A stretch of 64,000 bases of DNA from an uncultured Actinomycetes bacterium (GTDB lineage: Bacteria; Actinomycetota; Thermoleophilia; Gaiellales; JAICJC01), in assembly GCA_963809325.1 (NCBI GenBank), contig CAWEIZ010000001.1, positions 145,961-209,960 on the forward strand, written 5' to 3'. The position numbers and the translations under genes were made by a program. The notes under the pieces were generated by a model. The model searched no databases and was not told the DNA's origin. It saw only the letters and a list, made by a program, of their open reading frames with translations. Position 1 is the stretch's first letter; the number at the start of each line of letters is the position of its first letter. Below, in pieces: positions 5,473 through 57,000 of this stretch.

Positions 5473-6279
5473 CTAGCTAGGCGGCGGTGTGCCCGTCCGG
5501 AGGCCGTCGATGAAAGCGACGAGTTGCTGCACCTCATCCGGCGTGAAGGCGTCCTTGAACGGGGGCATGCCGTTGCCGCCGTTCACGATCTGCGCCTCGA
5601 TGTCCGCCTTCGACGGGCGCGGCGCGCCGTGGGACAGATCCGGGCCGACGGATCCGCCGCCTGCGCCGAAGTTGTGGCATGTGACGCACCCGTGTGTTGA
5701 GATCAGCGTCGCGGCGGGCAGTGCGTCGAACGCTGGGTTGCCGGTGATGTTCGACCCTGACACCGCACCGGGCGCGACCCCGCCGGCGATGGTGAGGGCG
5801 ATCAGCACGGCCGGCACGCTCAGGCCGACCGCCATGCCGACCGGCCGCCTCGAGATCCGGCGGTCGCGCCCGCGATCGAGGAACGGCCACACGACCAGCA
5901 ACACCATCAGGATCGTCGGGATGATGATCGTGGCGAATATCAGCTCCCATGGCGACTTGAAGATCCGAAGGAGCTCGAAGAGGAACAGGAAGTACCACTC
6001 CGGCCGCGGCTCGGTGACCTGGACGGCCGGATTCGCCTTGCCCTCGTAGAGCGGCCCGAGCAAGCCGTTCTGGCCGTTCGGGTGGTGGGCATCGATCGGG
6101 CCCGCGGTCTCGTGCCAGATCACGGCCATCGCCACGATCATGAGAACGATGATCAGGTTCACGACCGTGTCGTGGAACATCGCGTACGGGAAGAAGGGGT
6201 GGCCCTCCTTCTTCTGCGCCGCGAGCTCGGTCTCGTAGCGAACCCGGCGGTTGATCACCTTGCGGGCGGCGACGGCCAT
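5473..6279 (-). CDS. qcrC: Menaquinol:cytochrome c reductase QcrC-type subunit (cytochrome b subunit-IV-like domain fused to a c-type cytochrome)
   Basis: 268 aa. PEWYFLFLFELLR (subunit IV / C-terminal cytochrome b motif). C-terminal heme-c motif CVTCH and a distal NGGNGMPPF. Same architecture as Bacillus QcrC. Confidence 0.85.
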   Translation of the reverse strand: MAVAARKVINRRVRYETELAAQKKEGHPFFPYAMFHDTVVNLIIVLMIVAMAVIWHETAGPIDAHHPNGQNGLLGPLYEGKANPAVQVTEPRPEWYFLFLFELLRIFKSPWELIFATIIIPTILMVLLVVWPFLDRGRDRRISRRPVGMAVGLSVPAVLIALTIAGGVAPGAVSGSNITGNPAFDALPAATLISTHGCVTCHNFGAGGGSVGPDLSHGAPRPSKADIEAQIVNGGNGMPPFKDAFTPDEVQQLVAFIDGLRTGTPPPS

Positions 6280-6992
6280 CAGTCGCCGGCCGCCTCTTCA
6301 TGCGAAACCGGCCGGCTGGGCCACGGCGTCACGCCCAGCTTCACCACGAGCCACAGGTGGACGAAGATCAGCCCGCCGATCAACCCCGGGATCATGAGCA
6401 TGTGCAGGGCGTAGAACCTCGAGATGGTCTGCGCCCCGAACACGGGCCCTCCCAGCAGGAACTTCGAGATGAACGGCCCGAGCACGGGCGCGGTGCCGTT
6501 GATGTTGACCGCGACGACCGACGCCCAGTAGGCCCGCTCGTCCCACACGAGCAGATAGCCCGTGAGGCCCATCGCCATCGTCGACAGGAAGATCAGCGAC
6601 CCGGTGAGCCACGTCAGCTCCCGCGGGTACTTGTAGGCCCCGTAGAAGAACACCCGGCCCATGTGCAGGAAGAGCAGGATCACCATCATCGAGGCGCCCC
6701 ACTTGTGCATCCCGCGGATCAGCCAGCCGAGGGTCTCCTGGTCGGTGATGTAGCGGATCGACTCGTACGCCCCGGTCGGCGACGGGTTGTAGGTCATCGC
6801 GAGGAGCGCGCCCGTCACGGCCTGGATGATGAAGACGGTGAGAAGGGAGCTTCCGAGCGTGTGGAACCAGCCCGTGGGCGGCACCTTGCGGAAGAGGAAC
6901 TTGCGGACGAGGGTCGGGAACCCCGAGCGGTACTCGATCCAGTCCTCCGTCTGGAGGACGAGCTGCTTCGCGTCAGGGGTGGGGATCGGCAT
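6279..6992 (-). CDS. qcrB: Cytochrome b6-like subunit of menaquinol:cytochrome c reductase
   Basis: 237 aa. Conserved heme-ligand helices (IRGMHKWGASMMVILLFLHMGRVFF, FYALHMLMIP). 1-nt overlap with qcrC. Confidence 0.9.
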   Translation of the reverse strand: MPIPTPDAKQLVLQTEDWIEYRSGFPTLVRKFLFRKVPPTGWFHTLGSSLLTVFIIQAVTGALLAMTYNPSPTGAYESIRYITDQETLGWLIRGMHKWGASMMVILLFLHMGRVFFYGAYKYPRELTWLTGSLIFLSTMAMGLTGYLLVWDERAYWASVVAVNINGTAPVLGPFISKFLLGGPVFGAQTISRFYALHMLMIPGLIGGLIFVHLWLVVKLGVTPWPSRPVSHEEAAGD

Positions 6993-6995
6993 CGG

Positions 6996-7648
6996 TTACT
7001 TGGCCTGCGGCACGGCGCCGTGGTCGTACGTCACGTTCGGGTAGAGCACGTCGGCGACGATGCTCGGTCCGGGAGGCGCGACGGGCTGGCCGGGCATCTT
7101 GACCGGGAAGTAGAGGATCTTGCCGTCGCCGTTGAAGTCGACCGACCAGCGCTGGGTGATCCACAGCTCGTCCGTGTTCTTGATCTCCCACTGGAAGCGG
7201 TCGAGCGGGCGGATCGGCGGGCCGGCGGTCCGCTGACCCTCCTTGTTGTACTGCCCGCCGTGGCAGGGGCACGCGAAGCCCACGCCCTGGGCAACGGCGA
7301 CGGGGCACCCAAGGTGCATGCACCGGTTCGAGAACACAATGAACATCGCGTCGGCCGCCAGCCAGTCGGGGTTCGTCTTGCCGGTGTTCTGCACGAACGC
7401 AAGCCCAGGGCTCGTGGCCGGGTTCTGCGGGTCCTCGACATAGGTCGCCGGGGTCGGCTTGAAGCCCTGGGGTCGGCCGGGAACGCATCGACCTTCCCCA
7501 GGAATACGGGCTGGAACGTGGCCTCATCCGTGACGGGAGCCAGGAAATAGGCGGTCGCCGGCACGCCGATGATGCCGCCGATCATGGCTCCCATGCCGAC
7601 GGTCGAGAGGCTGAGGAATTGGCCCCTGGTCGTCCCGTCGTCAGCCAC
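6996..7648 (-). pseudogene. qcrA: Rieske 2Fe-2S subunit (qcrA) split over two reading frames by an apparent 1-nt deletion near 7469-7472
   Basis: The N-terminal 57 aa are in the frame of ORF 7031..7648 (MADDGTTRGQFLSLSTVGMGAMIGG...KVDAFPADP). The remainder is in the frame of ORF 6996..7394 (QGFKPTPATYVEDPQNPATSPGLAFVQNTGK...CMHLGC...CPCHGG). The junction lies at a C4/G3 homopolymer pair. Confidence 0.8.
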
Positions 7649-7750
7649 GCAGGTCCCTTCGCTCGCACACGTCGGCGGCGATCATAGCCGCGCCCCGCGG
7701 GAGCATAGTCCTCGCTGCGGCGCCCGTCGAGAACGTTTCAAACGGCGCGT

Positions 7751-9237: not shown

Positions 9238-9500
9238 TAGATGGGTGATTCCCAATTCACGGGATGTCCCAGCCGCAAGCCTTGGCTTGCGGCGATCGCG
9301 AGCGACCTGCTACCTAAGCAGGTCGCGAACGGGCGAGAACCGAGCAGCGCAAGGACGCAGGGAGGGTCAATATTGGTACGAGATATTGACCCGACCGAGG
9401 ACACAGCGATGCGAAGGTTCGCAGCCGCAGCCCCACCGCAACACGCCCCCAGTCCACAGCCGGACGTCCAGGCGCACGTGAGTTGGGAATCACCCATCTA
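9238..9500 (+). repeat. Family-1 structured repeat, copy 1 (longest; carries a ~48-nt insertion with two extra hairpins)
   Basis: Terminal arms are TAGATGGGTGATTCCCAATTCAC and GTGAGTTGGGAATCACCCATCTA. Conserved core is GCGAGAACCGAGCAGCGCAAGGACGCAGGGA-[hairpin]-CGACCGAGGACACAGCGATGCGAAGGTTCGCAGCCGCAGCCCC. Confidence 0.85.
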
Positions 9501-16104: not shown

Positions 16105-17060
16105 TGCGCCGCGCGGGCCGCGTGGTAGGTGATCACCATGTCGGCACCTGCCCTGCGGATGGCCGTCAGCGCTTCGAGCACCGCGGCGCGCTCGTCGATA
16201 AGGCCCTGCGCAGCCGCCGCGGCGATCATCGCGTACTCCCCGCTCACCTGATAGGCGGCCAGCGGCACCCGGGTCTGGTCGCGCAGGCTGCGCAGGATGT
16301 CGAGATACGGCAACGCCGGCTTCACCATCACCATGTCGGCGCCCTCCTCGATGTCGAGCAGCGCCTCGCGCACGGCCTCCCGGCCGTTTGCGGGATCCAT
16401 CTGATAGCCGCGCCGATCCCCGTGGCTGGGCGTCGAGTGCGCGGCGTCGCGAAACGGCCCGTAGAAGGCCGAGGCGAACTTCGCGCTGTAGGCGAGGATC
16501 GACGCCGTCTCGTACCCCTCGGCGTCGAGGGCCGACCGGATCGCGCCGACCCGGCCGTCCATCATGTCGGACGGCGCGACGATGTCGGCTCCGGCCCGGG
16601 CATGGGACACGGCCGTGTCCGCGAGCACCTCGAGGCTGACGTCGTTTGCCACCTCGCCGTCCTGGATGATGCCGCAGTGGCCGTGCGACGTGTACTGGCA
16701 CAGGCAGACATCGGTCATCACCACCAGATCGGGAACGTTGGCCCGCAGGGCGCGCACGCCCATCTGCACGATCCCCTCGTCGTCGAAGGCCTCGCTGGCG
16801 GCCTCGTCCTTGCGTGCGGGCAGGCCGAACACGATCACGGCCGGGACGCCGGCGGCGTGCGCCTCGGCGGCCCGCTCCACGAGCGAATCGACCGACAGGT
16901 GATACTGGCCGGGCATCGAGGCGATCTCCTCCTGGCCCGTTCCGTGCCGCACGAAGAACGGCTGGATCAGGTCGGCGGGCGACACGCGCGTCTCGCGAAC
17001 GAGGTCCCGCACCCCGGCCGTACGGCGCAAACGGCGCATGCGGGTGACCGGGAACGCCAT
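16092..17060 (-). CDS. hemB: Porphobilinogen synthase (delta-aminolevulinate dehydratase)
   Basis: ORF 16092..17252 trimmed to ATG at 17060 ([13 protein letters not shown]). Zn-type motif [14 protein letters not shown] and active-site MVKPA. Confidence 0.9.
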
Positions 17061-17118
17061 GGGCGCAGTGTACCGCCGGCCTTGTTCCGGCCACGGCAAA
17101 GGTGTAGTCTTGCCAAGA

Positions 17119-18534
17119 GTGGACGGGCAATGGAGCGATGTTGACGGACCGGTGGGGGAGCCGACCGTGGAAGAGCACACAGGGCAGGACGACGAGTATT
17201 CGAACGAGGCGCTGCGCAAGCTCGGCGCCCGCGTGCGCCATCTGCGCCGCAAGAACGGGATGACGCAGCGGGAGCTCTCGTTCGACGGGTGCTCCTACAG
17301 CTACCTGGCTCGCATCGAGGCCGGCGACCGCCGCCCCAGCCCGCGCGTGCTCATGGAGATCGCCCGCCGCCTGGGCGTCACCGCCGAGGAGCTCTCCGGC
17401 GAGACGTCGACCGAGCAGCGCTCGCGGTCGCTCGAGCTCCTGGACGCGGCGATGATGATCCGCGCGGGCGACCTCGACGACGCCGAGGAGCTCCTGCGCG
17501 GCGTCCTTCGCGAGGCCGAGGTGAACGGCGACTCCCAGCGGATGAGCGAGGCCTACGAGGGCCTCGGCGCGGTCGCCGCCGAGCGGGGCCAGCACGCCGC
17601 CGCGATCGGCCTCCTCGAGCAGGCTCGCGATGCCGGCGCGCCGCCCGACCCGGCCGAGCGGGTCGAGCTCTTCGGGCGCCTCTTCGAGCTGTACCGCCGC
17701 TCCGGGGACGTCGCCCGGGCGCTGGCGCTCCTCCAGGACTGCCTGCTCCAGCTTCGGCGATCGCCGGTCGTCGACGCGACCAAGGTCGTGCGCTACGCCG
17801 TGTGGCTGTCACGCGCCTACACCGAGGCCGGCGATCCGGCGCGGGCCGCCGACGTGCTCGGCTCGGCGCTCGCCGACGGCGGCGATCAGGTCGACCTCCG
17901 CAGCCGCGCAGCGGCGCAGTACGAGCTGTCACGGCGGCTGGCGGCCGCCGGCGAGGTCGAGCAGGCGCTGCGCTCGGCCGATCGCTCACTCTCGCTCTAC
18001 GAGCTCGACGAGGACAACCGCGCGCTCAGCGAGGCCCACCTCGCGTACGCGCAGAGGCTGCTCGACGTCGGCGACGCCGAGGCCGGGCGCCATCTCACCG
18101 CGGCCCGGAACCTCCTCGGCGCGCATCCGAGCGCGACCGACCACGGACGAATCCTCGTCGAGGACGCACGCCAGGCGTTGCTCATCGGCGATGCTGCCGC
18201 GGCGGCGCAGCGGGCCGCCCAGGCCGTGCGGGCCCTGGCCGACGGCGACGGCGCCCACCTCGGCGATGCGCACCTCGTGCTCGCCCGCGTCCAGGACGAG
18301 CTGGGCGAGGTCGAGCGGGCGGACGCCGCGTACACGGCCGCCATCGAGGCGATCCGCGCGCAGGACGCCTCCGCGCGCGACCTGGCGCGGGCGTACCGCT
18401 GGTACGGCAAGTTCCTGAAGCGGATCGGGCGGGCCGAGGCGGCCCTCGAGGCGTTCGAGCTCGCCGCCGACCTGGCGCCGTCGAACCAGGATGCGCTGGC
18501 GCCGGCCGAGGCGCGCTCCGGCACCACCTCCTGA
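17119..18534 (+). CDS. XRE-type HTH transcription regulator with C-terminal TPR repeats
   Basis: ORF 17038..18534. HTH sequence [28 protein letters not shown]. Long TPR-like helical repeats. Start is ambiguous (GTG at 17119, 17152 or 17167). Confidence 0.75.
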
Positions 18535-18552: not shown

Positions 18553-18755
18553 AGATGGGTTGTTCCGAACCCTCGCGCGCCTGGCCGCACAACTCCGGCA
18601 TCTAGGCCGCCGTGGTGGGGCTGCGGCTGCGAACCGTCGCATCGCGGCGTCCTCGGTCGCGCCGATATTTCGGTCAATATCGGCGCTTCCTGCGTCCTTG
18701 CGCTGCTCGGTTCTCGCCGCCCAGGACATCACGACGGTTCGGAACAAACCATCTA
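18553..18755 (-). repeat. Family-1 structured repeat, copy 2 (inverted relative to copy 1)
   Basis: Arms are AGATGGGTTGTTCCGAACCCTCG and CGACGGTTCGGAACAAACCATCT. Same core as copy 1 in reverse complement. Confidence 0.85.
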
Positions 18756-18765
18756 CGCTCCTCGG

Positions 18766-19902
18766 GTGCTCGATTCCGGCATGCCGCCCCTCGACGCTCC
18801 GACCCCGGCCGCGCGCGTCGACGGTGCGCTCGTCCAGATCGGGCTCGAGCGCCTCGACGAGGCCGAGGAGGACCTGCTCGTCGCCCTTCGGGGCGCGGAG
18901 GCCGCCCGCGACGACGAGACCGCCGCACGGGCGCAGGAGGGGCTCGGCTCGATCGCCGTCCGGCGCGGGAAGACCGCTGCGGCGATCGACTGGTTCGAGC
19001 GCGTGCTCCAGACGACCGGGCGCCCCGACCCGGCCGAGCGCATCGAGCTCTACCGCGCGCTGGGCCAGGCCTACTCCGAGAGCGGCCGCAGCGGCCCGGC
19101 CATCGCCCTCTTCGAGGAGTGCCTCGCCGAGCTGGAGCAGCGCCCGGACGCCGACCCGGCCACCGTCGTGCTCTACTCGATCTACCTGTCGCACGCGTAC
19201 GGCGACGCCGGCGACTACGGGCGGGCGGCGGCGGCGCTGGCGGACGCGCTGCGGCGCGACGTCGAGGACATCGACCGGCGGGTGCGCGCGTTCGCATACC
19301 ACGCGCTGGCGCGGCTCTACTGCACGACGGGCCACACCGCTCAGGCGCTCGTCTACGCCGACAAGCAGGTCGAGCTGACCGAGGCCAGCGGGAATGACTG
19401 GCATGCCGCGAACGCCCATCTCGTGCGGGCCCACATCCTGCTCGACGACGCCCAGACCGACGCGGCGCGCGAGGCGCTCCAGGCGACGCGCCGGCTGTAC
19501 GGCACGCGCATGAGCGGCCTCGACGAGGGCTGGGTGGTCGTGGAGGAGGCGCGGCTCGCGCTCCAGGCCGGCGATCCCGAGGGCGCGATCGAGCAGGCGC
19601 GCCTGGCGATCGAGCTCCTGGGGACGCAGTCGGCGCCGGGCGAGCTGGGCGACGCGTACCTCGTCCTCGCTCGCGGCTACGACGAGCTGGGCCTGGCCGA
19701 GCGCGCCGAGACGGCCTACGCGGCCGCGATCGACGCGCTTCAGAAGCAGAACGGCTGGCACTGTGAGCTCGGCCGGGCGTACCGCTGGTACGGCAAGTTC
19801 CTGCGGAGGGCCGGACGCGCCGAGGCGGCGATGGACGCGTTCGAGCGGGCGGCCGACCTCGCGCCGTCCAATCTGGCCGTCCTCGAGCTCCCCGACGTAT
19901 AG
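18766..19902 (+). CDS. TPR-repeat protein, paralog of the upstream regulator but lacking the HTH
   Basis: 378 aa. Collinear with residues after the HTH of the 17119..18534 product. Near-identical C-terminal block [33 protein letters not shown]. Confidence 0.75.
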   Translation: MLDSGMPPLDAPTPAARVDGALVQIGLERLDEAEEDLLVALRGAEAARDDETAARAQEGLGSIAVRRGKTAAAIDWFERVLQTTGRPDPAERIELYRALGQAYSESGRSGPAIALFEECLAELEQRPDADPATVVLYSIYLSHAYGDAGDYGRAAAALADALRRDVEDIDRRVRAFAYHALARLYCTTGHTAQALVYADKQVELTEASGNDWHAANAHLVRAHILLDDAQTDAAREALQATRRLYGTRMSGLDEGWVVVEEARLALQAGDPEGAIEQARLAIELLGTQSAPGELGDAYLVLARGYDELGLAERAETAYAAAIDALQKQNGWHCELGRAYRWYGKFLRRAGRAEAAMDAFERAADLAPSNLAVLELPDV

Positions 19903-20077
19903 CGCGGGGGAACCCAGGGTTCCCCCGCGAGCCCCCTCCTTAAGGGGTGCCGCGTGGTTTGCCGCGCTCCGGCGAAGAGCGCGGTCTTCGCCGGAGCCAC
20001 GACTGCCAGTACATGTGTGAGTGCAGCCGCAACGATTCCCCGTGCGCGCGAAACGGAGTTTCTGCGTGCGCCCCGCC
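19900..20077 (+). repeat. Family-2 multi-palindrome repeat, copy A
   Basis: Starts on a TAG stop codon. Contains CGCGGGGGAACCCaGGGTTCCCCCGCG, CCTTAAGG and GCTCCGGCGAAGA-6-TCTTCGCCGGAGC. Alignable by eye with the rc of 56826-57000. Confidence 0.8.
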
Positions 20078-20281
20078 TAGATGATTGATTCCTAATTCCC
20101 GCGCGCCTGGACGCGTGACGGTGGCAGGGATGCCGGCTGGTTGTGGGGGCTGCGGCTGCGAACCGTCGCATCGCTGTGTCCTCGGTCGCGCCGATATTCC
20201 CGATATCGGCGCTCCCTGCGTCCTTGCGCTGCTTGGTTCGCAGCCGCCCAGGACATCACGGAATCAGGAATCAATCATCTA
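20078..20281 (-). repeat. Family-1 structured repeat, copy 3
   Basis: Arms are TAGATGATTGATTCCTAATTCC and GGAATCAGGAATCAATCATCTA. The core is conserved. Its last CTA is the TAG stop of the AI-2E gene. Confidence 0.85.
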
Positions 20282-21537: not shown

Positions 21538-22326
21538 GTGATCGCTACTGGAAGGCGGCCTCCGCGCCGGCGGCCGCGCCGCCGGCCGCCCCGTACCCGC
21601 GCTCGTCGCATCGGGTTCGCGATCGCCCTTCTGGCGATCGTGGTGCTCGTCGCGACCGCACTTCGCGGCGGGTCTGCGCCGCGTATCCAGGCCGCCGTCA
21701 CCGTGTCGCCGCCGAAGCACGCCCTGGCGCCCGACGGCCCGCCGATCCCGACCCTCATGGCCGGCGGCCCGAACGGGCTCGAGCTCGACGTGCCCATCGC
21801 CCAGGCCCGGGTGACGGCGATCGTGTACCACGGCGTGGGGGACGCCGGCGTCATCGCCCTCGCGCCGTCCGGCCACCAGAGGAACGCCGGCATCGTCACG
21901 AAGCTGAGCAACCTCCTCACGGGGACGTCCACGGGAGCCGGGCCGGCGTACTACGTCGACAGCGCGGGAGGCGGCGCCTCGACGGGATCGGTCGACGTCG
22001 GTGCCGTCGCCGGAACGCGCGTCTACTCGCCGGTCGACGGCACGATCGTCGGCATCCGGCCGTACGTGCTGGACGGCTCGCCGCACGGCAGCGTGCTCCA
22101 GATCCAGCCGACGTCGACGCCGGCCGACATCGTGACGCTCACGAACATCCGCACGGCGAGCCAGATCGCGGTCGGCGACCAGGTCATCGCCGCGCGGACG
22201 CGACTCGGCACCGTGATCGACCTGAGCCGGGTGATCACGCAGGAGCTCGCCAAGTACACCTCCGACGCCGGAAACCACGTTCACCTCGAGGTCGGCCCGG
22301 CGCCGGCCGCGTCTCTTCTGCTCTAG
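21538..22326 (+). CDS. Membrane-anchored M23/LytM-like peptidase-domain protein (possibly degenerate)
   Basis: 262 aa. Arg-rich N-terminus plus a TM helix. C-terminal GNHVHLEV resembles the M23 HxH motif. Stop TAG is shared with family-1 copy 4. Confidence 0.55.
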   Translation: MIATGRRPPRRRPRRRPPRTRARRIGFAIALLAIVVLVATALRGGSAPRIQAAVTVSPPKHALAPDGPPIPTLMAGGPNGLELDVPIAQARVTAIVYHGVGDAGVIALAPSGHQRNAGIVTKLSNLLTGTSTGAGPAYYVDSAGGGASTGSVDVGAVAGTRVYSPVDGTIVGIRPYVLDGSPHGSVLQIQPTSTPADIVTLTNIRTASQIAVGDQVIAARTRLGTVIDLSRVITQELAKYTSDAGNHVHLEVGPAPAASLLL

Positions 22327-22488
22327 TGGGTCGTCCGGTAACGTTGCCTGCGTCGATGGCGAGCGAAAAGCAAGCGATGCAAGGACACAGGGAGCGTCAA
22401 TAGTGGAACTATTGGCGCGACCGAGGACGCAGCAGCGCGCCGCTTTGCAGCCGCCAGAACCCGGCGAACGTTGCCGGACGATCCACTA
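22324..22488 (+). repeat. Family-1 structured repeat, copy 4 (most divergent)
   Basis: Arms are TAGTGGGTCGTCCGGTAACGTTGCC and GGCGAACGTTGCCGGACGATCCACTA. The core is retained, with compensatory changes in two inner stems. Confidence 0.8.
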
Positions 22489-44157: not shown

Positions 44158-44230
44158 TGCCCTCGCCAGGATTCGAACCTGGGACGCCGGCCTTAGGAGA
44201 GCCGCGCTCTATCCCCTGAGCTACGAGGGC
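44158..44230 (-). tRNA. tRNA-Arg (anticodon CCU)
   Basis: Manual cloverleaf, 73 nt. Acceptor GCCCTCG/CGAGGGC, D arm GCTC-AGGGGATA-GAGC, anticodon stem CGGCT/GGCCG with loop CTCCTAA, T arm CCAGG-TTCGAAT-CCTGG. No encoded CCA. Confidence 0.9.
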
Positions 44231-56825: not shown

Positions 56826-57000
56826 ACGCGCGGGGGTCAGACCCCGGTTCACGCCCGCGGAAAATCGTTGCAGCTCCGCAACACATGCACCCAACGCTGA
56901 TGGCGCCGGCGAAGACCACGCTCTTCGCCGGAGCGCGGCGAACACAACGCCAGCCCTTAAGGAGGGGGCTCACGGGGGAACCCTGGGTTCCCCCGTGCTA
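56826..57000 (-). repeat. Family-2 multi-palindrome repeat, copy B
   Basis: The rc begins TAGCACGGGGGAACCCAGGGTTCCCCCGTG...CCTTAAGG...GCTCCGGCGAAGAGCGTGGTCTTCGCCGG. It embeds one GGGGTCAGACCCC (56833-45). Its TAG is the stop of ctaE. Confidence 0.8.

Follow-up and report, generated by a model that had tools for sequence, protein, structure and literature searches.

A family of small mobile hairpin elements in soil Thermoleophilia with two near-invariant unpaired boxes and a fold on one strand

ERIC, Correia and RUP are bacterial MITEs (miniature transposable elements with inverted repeats) flanked by TA; their transcripts form long stem-loops with orientation-dependent effects, and RUP is linked to IS630-Spn1 (PMC2229807). 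Here, we describe a repeat that is present in four copies within a 64,000-nt stretch of DNA (hereafter the window) from an uncultured bacterium of the class Thermoleophilia (contig CAWEIZ010000001.1, positions 145,961 to 209,960 of the forward strand), and for which these three TA-flanked MITEs are the closest known systems. Like ERIC (IRU/RU-1), Correia (NEMIS) and RUP, the repeat is small, non-coding and intergenic, has inverted termini, duplicates a TA target and forms a long stable hairpin. It shares no sequence similarity with any of them and its host belongs to a different class. In contrast to all three, its most conserved part is a central, non-palindromic pair of unpaired boxes, whereas its termini vary between sub-lineages, and its mismatches show a strong measured asymmetry between the two strands. 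The novelty of the element lies in the invariant boxes, the diversified termini and the strand-specific mismatch spectrum.

The repeats constitute a previously undescribed family of small mobile elements, ~100–265 nt in length, which is common in soil Thermoleophilia, and of its two strands it is the one bearing the boxes (the box strand) that folds. We identify the element as a non-autonomous MITE. A preliminary description of the window proposed an undescribed structured RNA or a non-autonomous element; both halves of that proposal hold, and what fails is the opposition between them, since the structured element is itself a MITE. The reading that we prefer, with a probability of roughly 0.55, is that of a TA-duplicating MITE carrying a strand-specific structured module that probably acts as an RNA bound by a dimeric protein, for which CsrA is one candidate. 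The four copies and their parts are as follows.

9238 to 9500, + strand: copy 1, full element, 263 nt; inverted termini TAGATGGGTGATTCCCAATTCAC and GTGAGTTGGGAATCACCCATCTA, each including the flanking TA.
9332 to 9425, + strand: copy 1 core (helices P1 and P2, twin-box loop, apical hairpin P3), 82.6 bits with the covariance model.
9351 to 9363, 9364 to 9392 and 9393 to 9405, + strand: box 1 (AAGGACGCAGGGA), apical hairpin and box 2 (GACCGAGGACACA) of copy 1.
18553 to 18755, - strand: copy 2, full element; missing from sister strains L120 and L122.
18626 to 18718, - strand: copy 2 core, 85.2 bits; box 1 at 18687 to 18699, apical hairpin at 18659 to 18686, box 2 at 18646 to 18658.
20078 to 20281, - strand: copy 3, full element; missing from L120, inner hairpin deleted in L119 and L121.
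20155 to 20244, - strand: copy 3 core, 88.4 bits; box 1 at 20213 to 20225, apical hairpin at 20188 to 20212, box 2 at 20175 to 20187.
22324 to 22488, + strand: copy 4, full element, 165 nt (167 counting the C and G of the CTAG site).
22362 to 22451, + strand: copy 4 core, 85.6 bits; box 1 (AAGGACACAGGGA) at 22381 to 22393, apical hairpin at 22394 to 22418, box 2 at 22419 to 22431.

The coordinates and strands of the four copies were confirmed by re-reading the sequence, and the arms, the apical hairpins and the inner stem (GAACC:GGTTC versus AAAGC:GCTTT) all read as first quoted. A 21-nt string of the core occurs three times in the window with up to 3 mismatches, against 0.01 occurrences expected. 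When a covariance model of the core, built from 64 diverse copies, was run over the window with filters off, the four copies were the sole sites in 64 kb (82.6–88.4 bits, E ~1e-21), the next match scoring 14.5 bits. The core of copy 2 has a folding energy of -45.1 kcal/mol, with z = -5.6 relative to shuffles. The preliminary description could place the repeat in no RNA family, and Rfam 15 indeed holds none for it: no match overlaps copies 2–4 even at E up to 10, and at the gathering threshold the sole Rfam match in the window is a tRNA gene (44158–44230, - strand).

Each copy is one long imperfect hairpin, and the copies fall into size classes of ~100–115, 160–172, 200–215 and 263 nt. From its base upward, the hairpin begins with variable terminal arms and continues through helix P1 and a small internal loop to the 7-bp helix P2, in which a central purine-purine pair is often present; then follow box 1 (AAGGACGCAGGGA), the apical hairpin P3 of ~10 bp, and box 2 (GAC(C/T)GAGGACGCC). 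The boxes are unpaired and near-invariant, and lie opposite one another across an internal loop. They are direct, not inverted, repeats of one another, and the box-to-box distance ranges from ~49 to 62 nt and is not a multiple of 3. The end of box 1 and the start of box 2 are able to form GG:CC plus tandem G.A/A.G pairs. With this closure, a loop of 9 x 9 remains; its two strands have the sequence (A/G)AGGACGC(A/C) in common, and it is therefore two-fold pseudo-symmetric. The C/T polymorphism of box 2 pairs with the G of CAGG in box 1, as G-C in 31 copies and as G.U in 58 copies.

The terminal arms of the family are 13–25 nt long and pair within each copy; the element begins with G and ends with C. 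The arms of the window copies do pair, as had been proposed, but copies 1–3 are no simple palindromes, their 3' arm having ~45 extra unpaired bases. Copy 1 has two additional small hairpins in its 5' arm (~9270–9330; palindromes CCGCAAGCCTTGGCTTGCGG and GCGACCTGCTACCTAAGCAGGTCGC) that are not in the other copies, and it is the sole copy whose complement folds slightly better.

The conservation of the boxes is no artefact of the search. In a check for bias, soil metagenomes were scanned with a pattern in which nothing is fixed except the termini of one sub-lineage (GGAGGGCTTGGCG, 120–150 nt, CGCCAAGCCCTCC), and the core was present in 104 of 113 unique copies among the matches listed. In this termini-only set, the box positions are 91–100% identical (the C/T site and the last base excepted), versus 39–95% at adjacent stem positions. 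About 9 termini-only copies have a different right half. A minority variant, seen in loci L146, L164, L173, L185, L189, L227, L232 and L166 (2615–2790), keeps box 1 and has box 2 swapped for unrelated sequence, examples of which are ...GACTGCGWWACCAGGGCGGAGCC... and ...CCGTSATTCTGAACGCGGATGCGTTG...

The family is large and dispersed. A scan of one genome per species with a pattern requiring only GCAAGGAC.CAGG and GACCGAGGAC gave at least 118 matching stretches; among the matches listed, the hosts are metagenome-assembled genomes (MAGs) named Solirubrobacterales, Gaiellales, Thermoleophilaceae, Miltoncostaeaceae, Thermoleophilia or unclassified Actinomycetota. The termini pattern matched at least 120 contigs of soil metagenomes. 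Altogether, more than 230 copies lie on more than 200 contigs of Thermoleophilia genomes and soil metagenomes, and in their stems and termini they have split into numerous sub-lineages spread over several orders. The covariance model adds copies with a one-base box deviation in the same loci, where there are up to three copies per 8 kb. A full copy, the concatenated termini and the core pattern had no match in IMG/VR or in phage and plasmid collections; the element thus appears to be chromosomal. A literature search on MITEs in the taxon, on structured RNAs and on the box sequences returned nothing relevant.

Every helix around the twin-box loop covaries. A plain MAFFT alignment comprising 64 copies has 74% of its cells paired; with slid partners, the figure is 36–43%. 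The covariation score of 0.385 (0.168 for shuffled alignments) was reached by none of 500 shuffles, which bears out the covarying stems of the preliminary description. For an independent set of 94 soil copies, aligned to the model, pairing is 90% (30–40% with slid partners), again with 0 of 500 shuffles reaching the score, and both sides have changed in 23 of 26 pairs; this alignment was fitted to the covariance model and hence favours pairing. The idea that the four window copies display compensation site by site did not survive, however: the differences among them reflect distinct sub-lineages. Orthologous copies in sister strains differ by single changes, with one allele paired and the other unpaired (A.C, C.C or a 1-nt deletion), which suggests that it is the propagating lineage, and not every single inserted copy, on which selection acts.

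Mismatches within the hairpins reveal which strand is protected. The 5' arm of each copy was paired with its own 3' arm, and mismatches were scored on the box strand. In the first set, G:T exceeds A:C by 316 to 80 (p = 3e-34), and by 185 to 12 at positions beyond 25 pairs from the core; the excess is still 196 to 31 when each sequence context is counted once, and it is 561 to 33 in the independent soil set. Purine-purine mismatches likewise outnumber pyrimidine-pyrimidine ones (293 versus 84). Of 64 full-length copies folded as RNA, 63 are more stable on the box strand than on its complement, and the mean energies of the two strands are -116.8 and -97.0 kcal/mol, respectively. Base composition was rejected as the source of the G:T excess, as it predicts just 1.17:1. 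Local transcription was rejected as well: the excess is found where the flanking genes are in sense (35:12), antisense (92:21), convergent (59:17) and divergent (42:1) arrangement, and it is thus a property of the element lineage.

These data bear on whether the element could be a purely selfish MITE with a functionless core, in which the boxes are conserved through recent spread and the strand asymmetry is a mutational bias. The accumulation of unpaired changes after insertion agrees with such a view. We nevertheless regard it as quite improbable: the boxes are conserved though the stems and termini have diverged so widely, the ratio of G:T to A:C (4:1 to 17:1) departs from the expected one and persists in distinct contexts, and most pairs have changed on both sides.

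The mobility of the element is recorded in its flanks. Among 99 termini-collected copies, 57 are flanked by TA on both sides, with a C before the left TA in 59 and a G after the right TA in 37, which defines the target as C|TA|G. Copies of other sub-lineages are flanked by TAA, TTA or TCA direct repeats, and TNA/TNA cases exist. Mobility is also seen in strains nearly identical to that of the window, which were taken as contigs encoding an identical YmdB protein. Copy 2 is shared by the window, L119 and L121 and is missing from L120 and L122. Copy 3 is full in the window and in L122 and is missing from L120. For both copies, the flanks are otherwise identical. In L119 and L121 (~7600–7700, orthologous to window 20138–20260), copy 3 has lost 88 nt comprising P1, P2, the boxes and P3 and has kept its arms; the deletion is bounded by the imperfect direct repeats GCGGCTGC and GCAGCCGC. 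Copy 4 occurs in each of the strain contigs that span its site, and the three contigs spanning the site of copy 1 all have that copy. Strain comparisons over the rest of the window gave no additional polymorphic insertions.

The empty alleles may show how the element leaves. In element orientation, the empty allele of copy 3 reads CC-T-TC-TA-GG where CC-TA-GG is expected, and that of copy 2 reads GCG-TA-TC-CCTC, versus GCG-TA[...ATC]TGA-CCCTC when filled. TC, the last two bases of the element, is retained in both alleles, each of which has small losses on one side. IS630-family transposases duplicate TA and cut 2 nt inside the 5' ends (PMC2170065), and such a cut predicts a 2-nt remnant of this kind after end joining. 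The TC at both sites therefore leads us to read these two empty alleles as probable excision footprints. Together with the TA duplication, they suggest that a DDE transposase of the IS630/Tc1-mariner type moves the element in trans by cut-and-paste. Besides the duplicated TA, the element shares with members of this group such as ISY100 inverted termini of ~24 bp, and their cut 2 nt inside the 5' ends would leave the TC remnant of the two empty sites (PMC2170065). It differs from them in having no transposase gene and in that some copies have 3-bp TNA or CA flanks. TNA or CA flanks fit IS5/Harbinger-like targets equally well.

The source of a transposase was sought around the copies. The preliminary description stated that no transposase, reverse transcriptase or Cas gene is adjacent, and none was found among the genes neighbouring the window copies. 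In contrast to RUP, no partner insertion sequence turned up in the fetched loci, none of which contained unpaired termini enclosing an open reading frame (ORF). L166 was considered as an autonomous-partner candidate and rejected; it holds another variant copy. No RAYT-like gene lies between paired copies (in L097 and L094 only element fragments or ordinary genes are found there), and no HUH or tyrosine recombinase gene was seen between or beside paired copies. In L097, a tandem array of partial element arms (5760–6300) stands beside two full copies, with repetitive pseudo-ORFs on both strands. Separately, one sister strain (L122, 377–2630; L124, 2638–4891) carries two small sigma-70-domain ORFs and a 588-aa ORF at a place occupied by another set of genes in the remaining strains, an indel particular to that strain and without relation to the element.

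Copies are intergenic and often touch stop codons, with a median of ~35 nt between the stop and the edge of the core. In the window, the flanking TA of copy 3 and the first G of the element make up the TAG stop (20279–20281) of the AI-2E transporter gene, and in L120, which is without copy 3, the transporter is one residue longer (...ADSF versus ...ADS). Similarly, the TA and G at 22324–22326 of copy 4 form the stop codon of the ORF at 21538–22326. The genes adjoining the window copies encode UbiD, a DUF4129 protein, two paralogous HTH/TPR proteins, the AI-2E transporter and YmdB. The two HTH/TPR-type genes are in tandem (17038–18534 and 18781–19902), with 3' parts that are 74% identical in DNA, and each is followed by an element copy in the same (-) orientation; this arrangement may have arisen by joint duplication of gene and element or by two independent insertions. 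A second, unrelated repeat of ~100–120 nt has inverted copies at 19900–20000 and 56901–57000, whose 100-nt arms are 89% complementary. Each of its copies has two G+C-rich hairpins (CGGGGGAACCCAGGGTTCCCCCG and CTCCGGCGAAGAGCGCGGTCTTCGCCGGAG) and starts directly after a TAG, and one is situated between the TPR gene and element copy 3.

Genes were called by third-codon-position G+C, and 90 copies have genes on both sides. Their neighbours are convergent in 25 cases, divergent in 10, and co-directional in the rest, with the folding strand antisense to them in 40 and sense in 15 (p = 0.001). In the soil set, the co-directional copies are 19 antisense and 13 sense. Both the proximity to stop codons and the 25 convergent versus 10 divergent sites would suit a structural role at mRNA 3' ends, in which the hairpin would be a transcript-end stabiliser or a factor-dependent terminator, a role that has been suggested for ERIC, Correia and REP-type repeats, and the boxes would serve a nuclease or termination factor. 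The great stability of the hairpins and the orientation-dependent RNA effects of ERIC and Correia (PMC2229807) point the same way. We consider this role unlikely. The window copies lack a following U-tract or terminator-like tail, a TA/TNA target in a genome of 72% G+C (71.6% in the window) would by itself give a position near stop codons, and two invariant unpaired boxes of 13 nt are left unexplained.

A distinct arrangement is seen in 12 copies that lie 2 nt upstream of the ATG of an opposite-strand gene, with the flank CATCA|G (loci L003, L014, L017, L045, L077, L085, L088, L104, L108, L115 and L117). Judged by eye from the N-termini, the genes resemble S13, S11, L24, NusG, DnaG, GyrA and others. 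The reverse complement of the element arm supplies a Shine-Dalgarno (SD)-like run 5–6 nt ahead of the ATG. In all 12 copies, the frame that ends at the overlapping TGA stays open over the full length of the element. The mirror arrangement was not found among the copies. This asymmetry fits host-level filtering against the box strand within operon mRNAs.

The open frames raise the question of coding. It is extremely improbable that the repeats are a stationary family of small-RNA or riboswitch genes, or a small protein-coding gene. The conserved structure, one copy that lies in the leader of a small ORF, and the opposite-strand frame open in all ATG-abutting copies might be taken in favour of this idea. 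A stationary gene would not, however, differ in presence between strains or be flanked by TA duplications, nor would it be expected beside unrelated genes in both orientations. A coding element was rejected: the hairpin length breaks reading frames, the spacing between the boxes is variable and not in threes, the boxes fall in different frames between copies, and the lengths of the elements are spread evenly over the three remainders modulo 3. Depletion of stop codons is only mild, and it is seen on both strands.

Since the element folds as a single strand, the functional form could be RNA or DNA. Elements that work as single-stranded DNA offer a useful comparison. Like integron attC sites and REP/REPIN elements, the element conserves structure over helix sequence, has a strand-specific fold in which unpaired bases are seemingly recognition features, and is sited just after genes. 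It lacks the R''/R' core sites of attC (RYYYAAC ... GTTRRRY), its ends reading TA-G(A/T/G)G... ...C-TA. Compared with REP/REPIN, it has no GTAG, its boxes are direct rather than inverted repeats, and paired copies enclose no gene. It differs from both in having a TA duplication, with no integrase or RAYT gene seen nearby.

On this model, the twin-box hairpin would be, as single-stranded DNA, the substrate of a mobilising or processing enzyme, in the manner of integron attC sites, REP/REPIN-RAYT or IS200/IS605 ends, and folding would be selected for propagation. We regard this as a less favoured but serious rival. It is in line with the G:T excess as a lineage property independent of local transcription context, with the single unpaired changes between strains in inserted copies, and with conserved unpaired bases set within variable helices. 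The folding strand is often antisense to its neighbours and abuts their 3' ends; attC bottom strands are likewise antisense to neighbouring genes and abut their 3' ends. On the other side, double-strand cut-and-paste is indicated by the TA duplication with its bias for CTAG and by the 2-nt remnants in the empty alleles, the ends bear neither GTTRRRY/RYYYAAC nor GTAG signatures, no HUH or tyrosine recombinase gene accompanies paired copies, and the occurrence of both orientations among window copies within 13 kb speaks against a strict replication-strand rule.

RNA is favoured over single-stranded DNA because the mobility signature is that of double-strand cut-and-paste, because the orientation filter relates to transcription, and because tandem G.A and purine-purine pairs are common RNA motifs. 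According to the RNA reading, the conserved module would act once the box strand is transcribed, when a dimeric RNA-binding protein would be offered two A(N)GGAC sites, both single-stranded and ~50 nt from one another. It is the twin unpaired sites at this distance, on a symmetric platform, that suggest a dimeric binder. Each insertion would then plant a post-transcriptional binding or decoy site. Sense insertions between co-directional genes would be counter-selected, presumably because the module RNA is very stable and active, leaving the antisense excess.

The protein CsrA works as a homodimer; its targets are GGA motifs in single-stranded form (CAGGA(U/A/C)G in CsrB), and it can bridge two sites separated by 10–63 nt (PMC7652899). 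The AAGGAC and GAGGAC of the unpaired boxes, ~45–55 nt apart, amount to two GGA motifs at such a distance, and the 10 copies that escaped the exact-match pattern keep GGA in most of their 20 boxes. The element resembles CsrB/RsmZ-type RNAs and CsrA-regulated leaders in its single-stranded A(N)GGA motifs (CAAGGACG and CGAGGACG, versus CAGGA(U/A/C)G) and in having two sites inside the bridging range of the homodimer (PMC7652899). It differs from CsrB/RsmZ in that the motifs lie in the internal loop of a long helix rather than in short hairpin loops, that conservation extends well beyond GGA, and that it is mobile and multi-copy. In 1.2 Mb of sampled loci, there is one CsrA homologue (84 aa), which lies in L006, 260 nt from an element copy (1181–1270 and 1532–1786). 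The L006 copy makes up the leader of a small ORF for a membrane protein, and the SD of this ORF (CAAGGAGG) is within the 3' arm of the element.

Several observations weigh against an RNA module bound by CsrA. The co-occurrence of CsrA and the element is one case, with ~0.26 expected by chance. Conservation of 13 nt in each box exceeds the need of a GGA-type site. The folding strand is more often antisense to its neighbours, so read-through would usually yield the other strand, and a scan for sigma-70-like promoters found none in or beside the window copies, as single-stranded DNA would also have it. Selection on propagating lineages, which the changes between sister strains suggest, would accord with a role in mobility no less well than with an RNA function in the host. 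Mismatches containing G are also the more stable ones in DNA; the mismatch spectrum therefore cannot separate RNA from single-stranded DNA. As for the mode of transposition, neither empty-site junction is a clean TA restoration, the footprint reading rests on two sites, and ~1.8 Mb of fetched sequence and the plasmid and phage collections yielded no autonomous element whose termini match. In a form that names neither the nucleic acid nor the protein, our claim is a tentative one: a mobile, TA-duplicating hairpin may be recognised, or may act, as a folded single strand (RNA or DNA) through its symmetric boxes and a dimeric protein.

Thermoleophilia are abundant soil Actinomycetota that are genetically hardly studied. 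The covariance model can be used to mask or annotate hundreds of intergenic hairpins in soil MAGs, and insertion polymorphisms can serve as strain markers. If the core does work as a folded strand in a mobile hairpin, it would be a portable protein-binding module spread by transposition, for example a CsrA-type decoy or a single-strand recognition site. In this family, the middle of the element and not its ends is conserved, and the fold of one strand is protected by 4:1 to 17:1. If our preferred reading is true, this would count as measurable evidence for selection acting on a MITE lineage via its single-stranded form, and the puzzle of the lasting conservation of ERIC-like repeats could be put to the test in a new system. 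Should the boxes bind a global RNA-binding protein, regulatory or decoy sites would be carried through these genomes by transposition.

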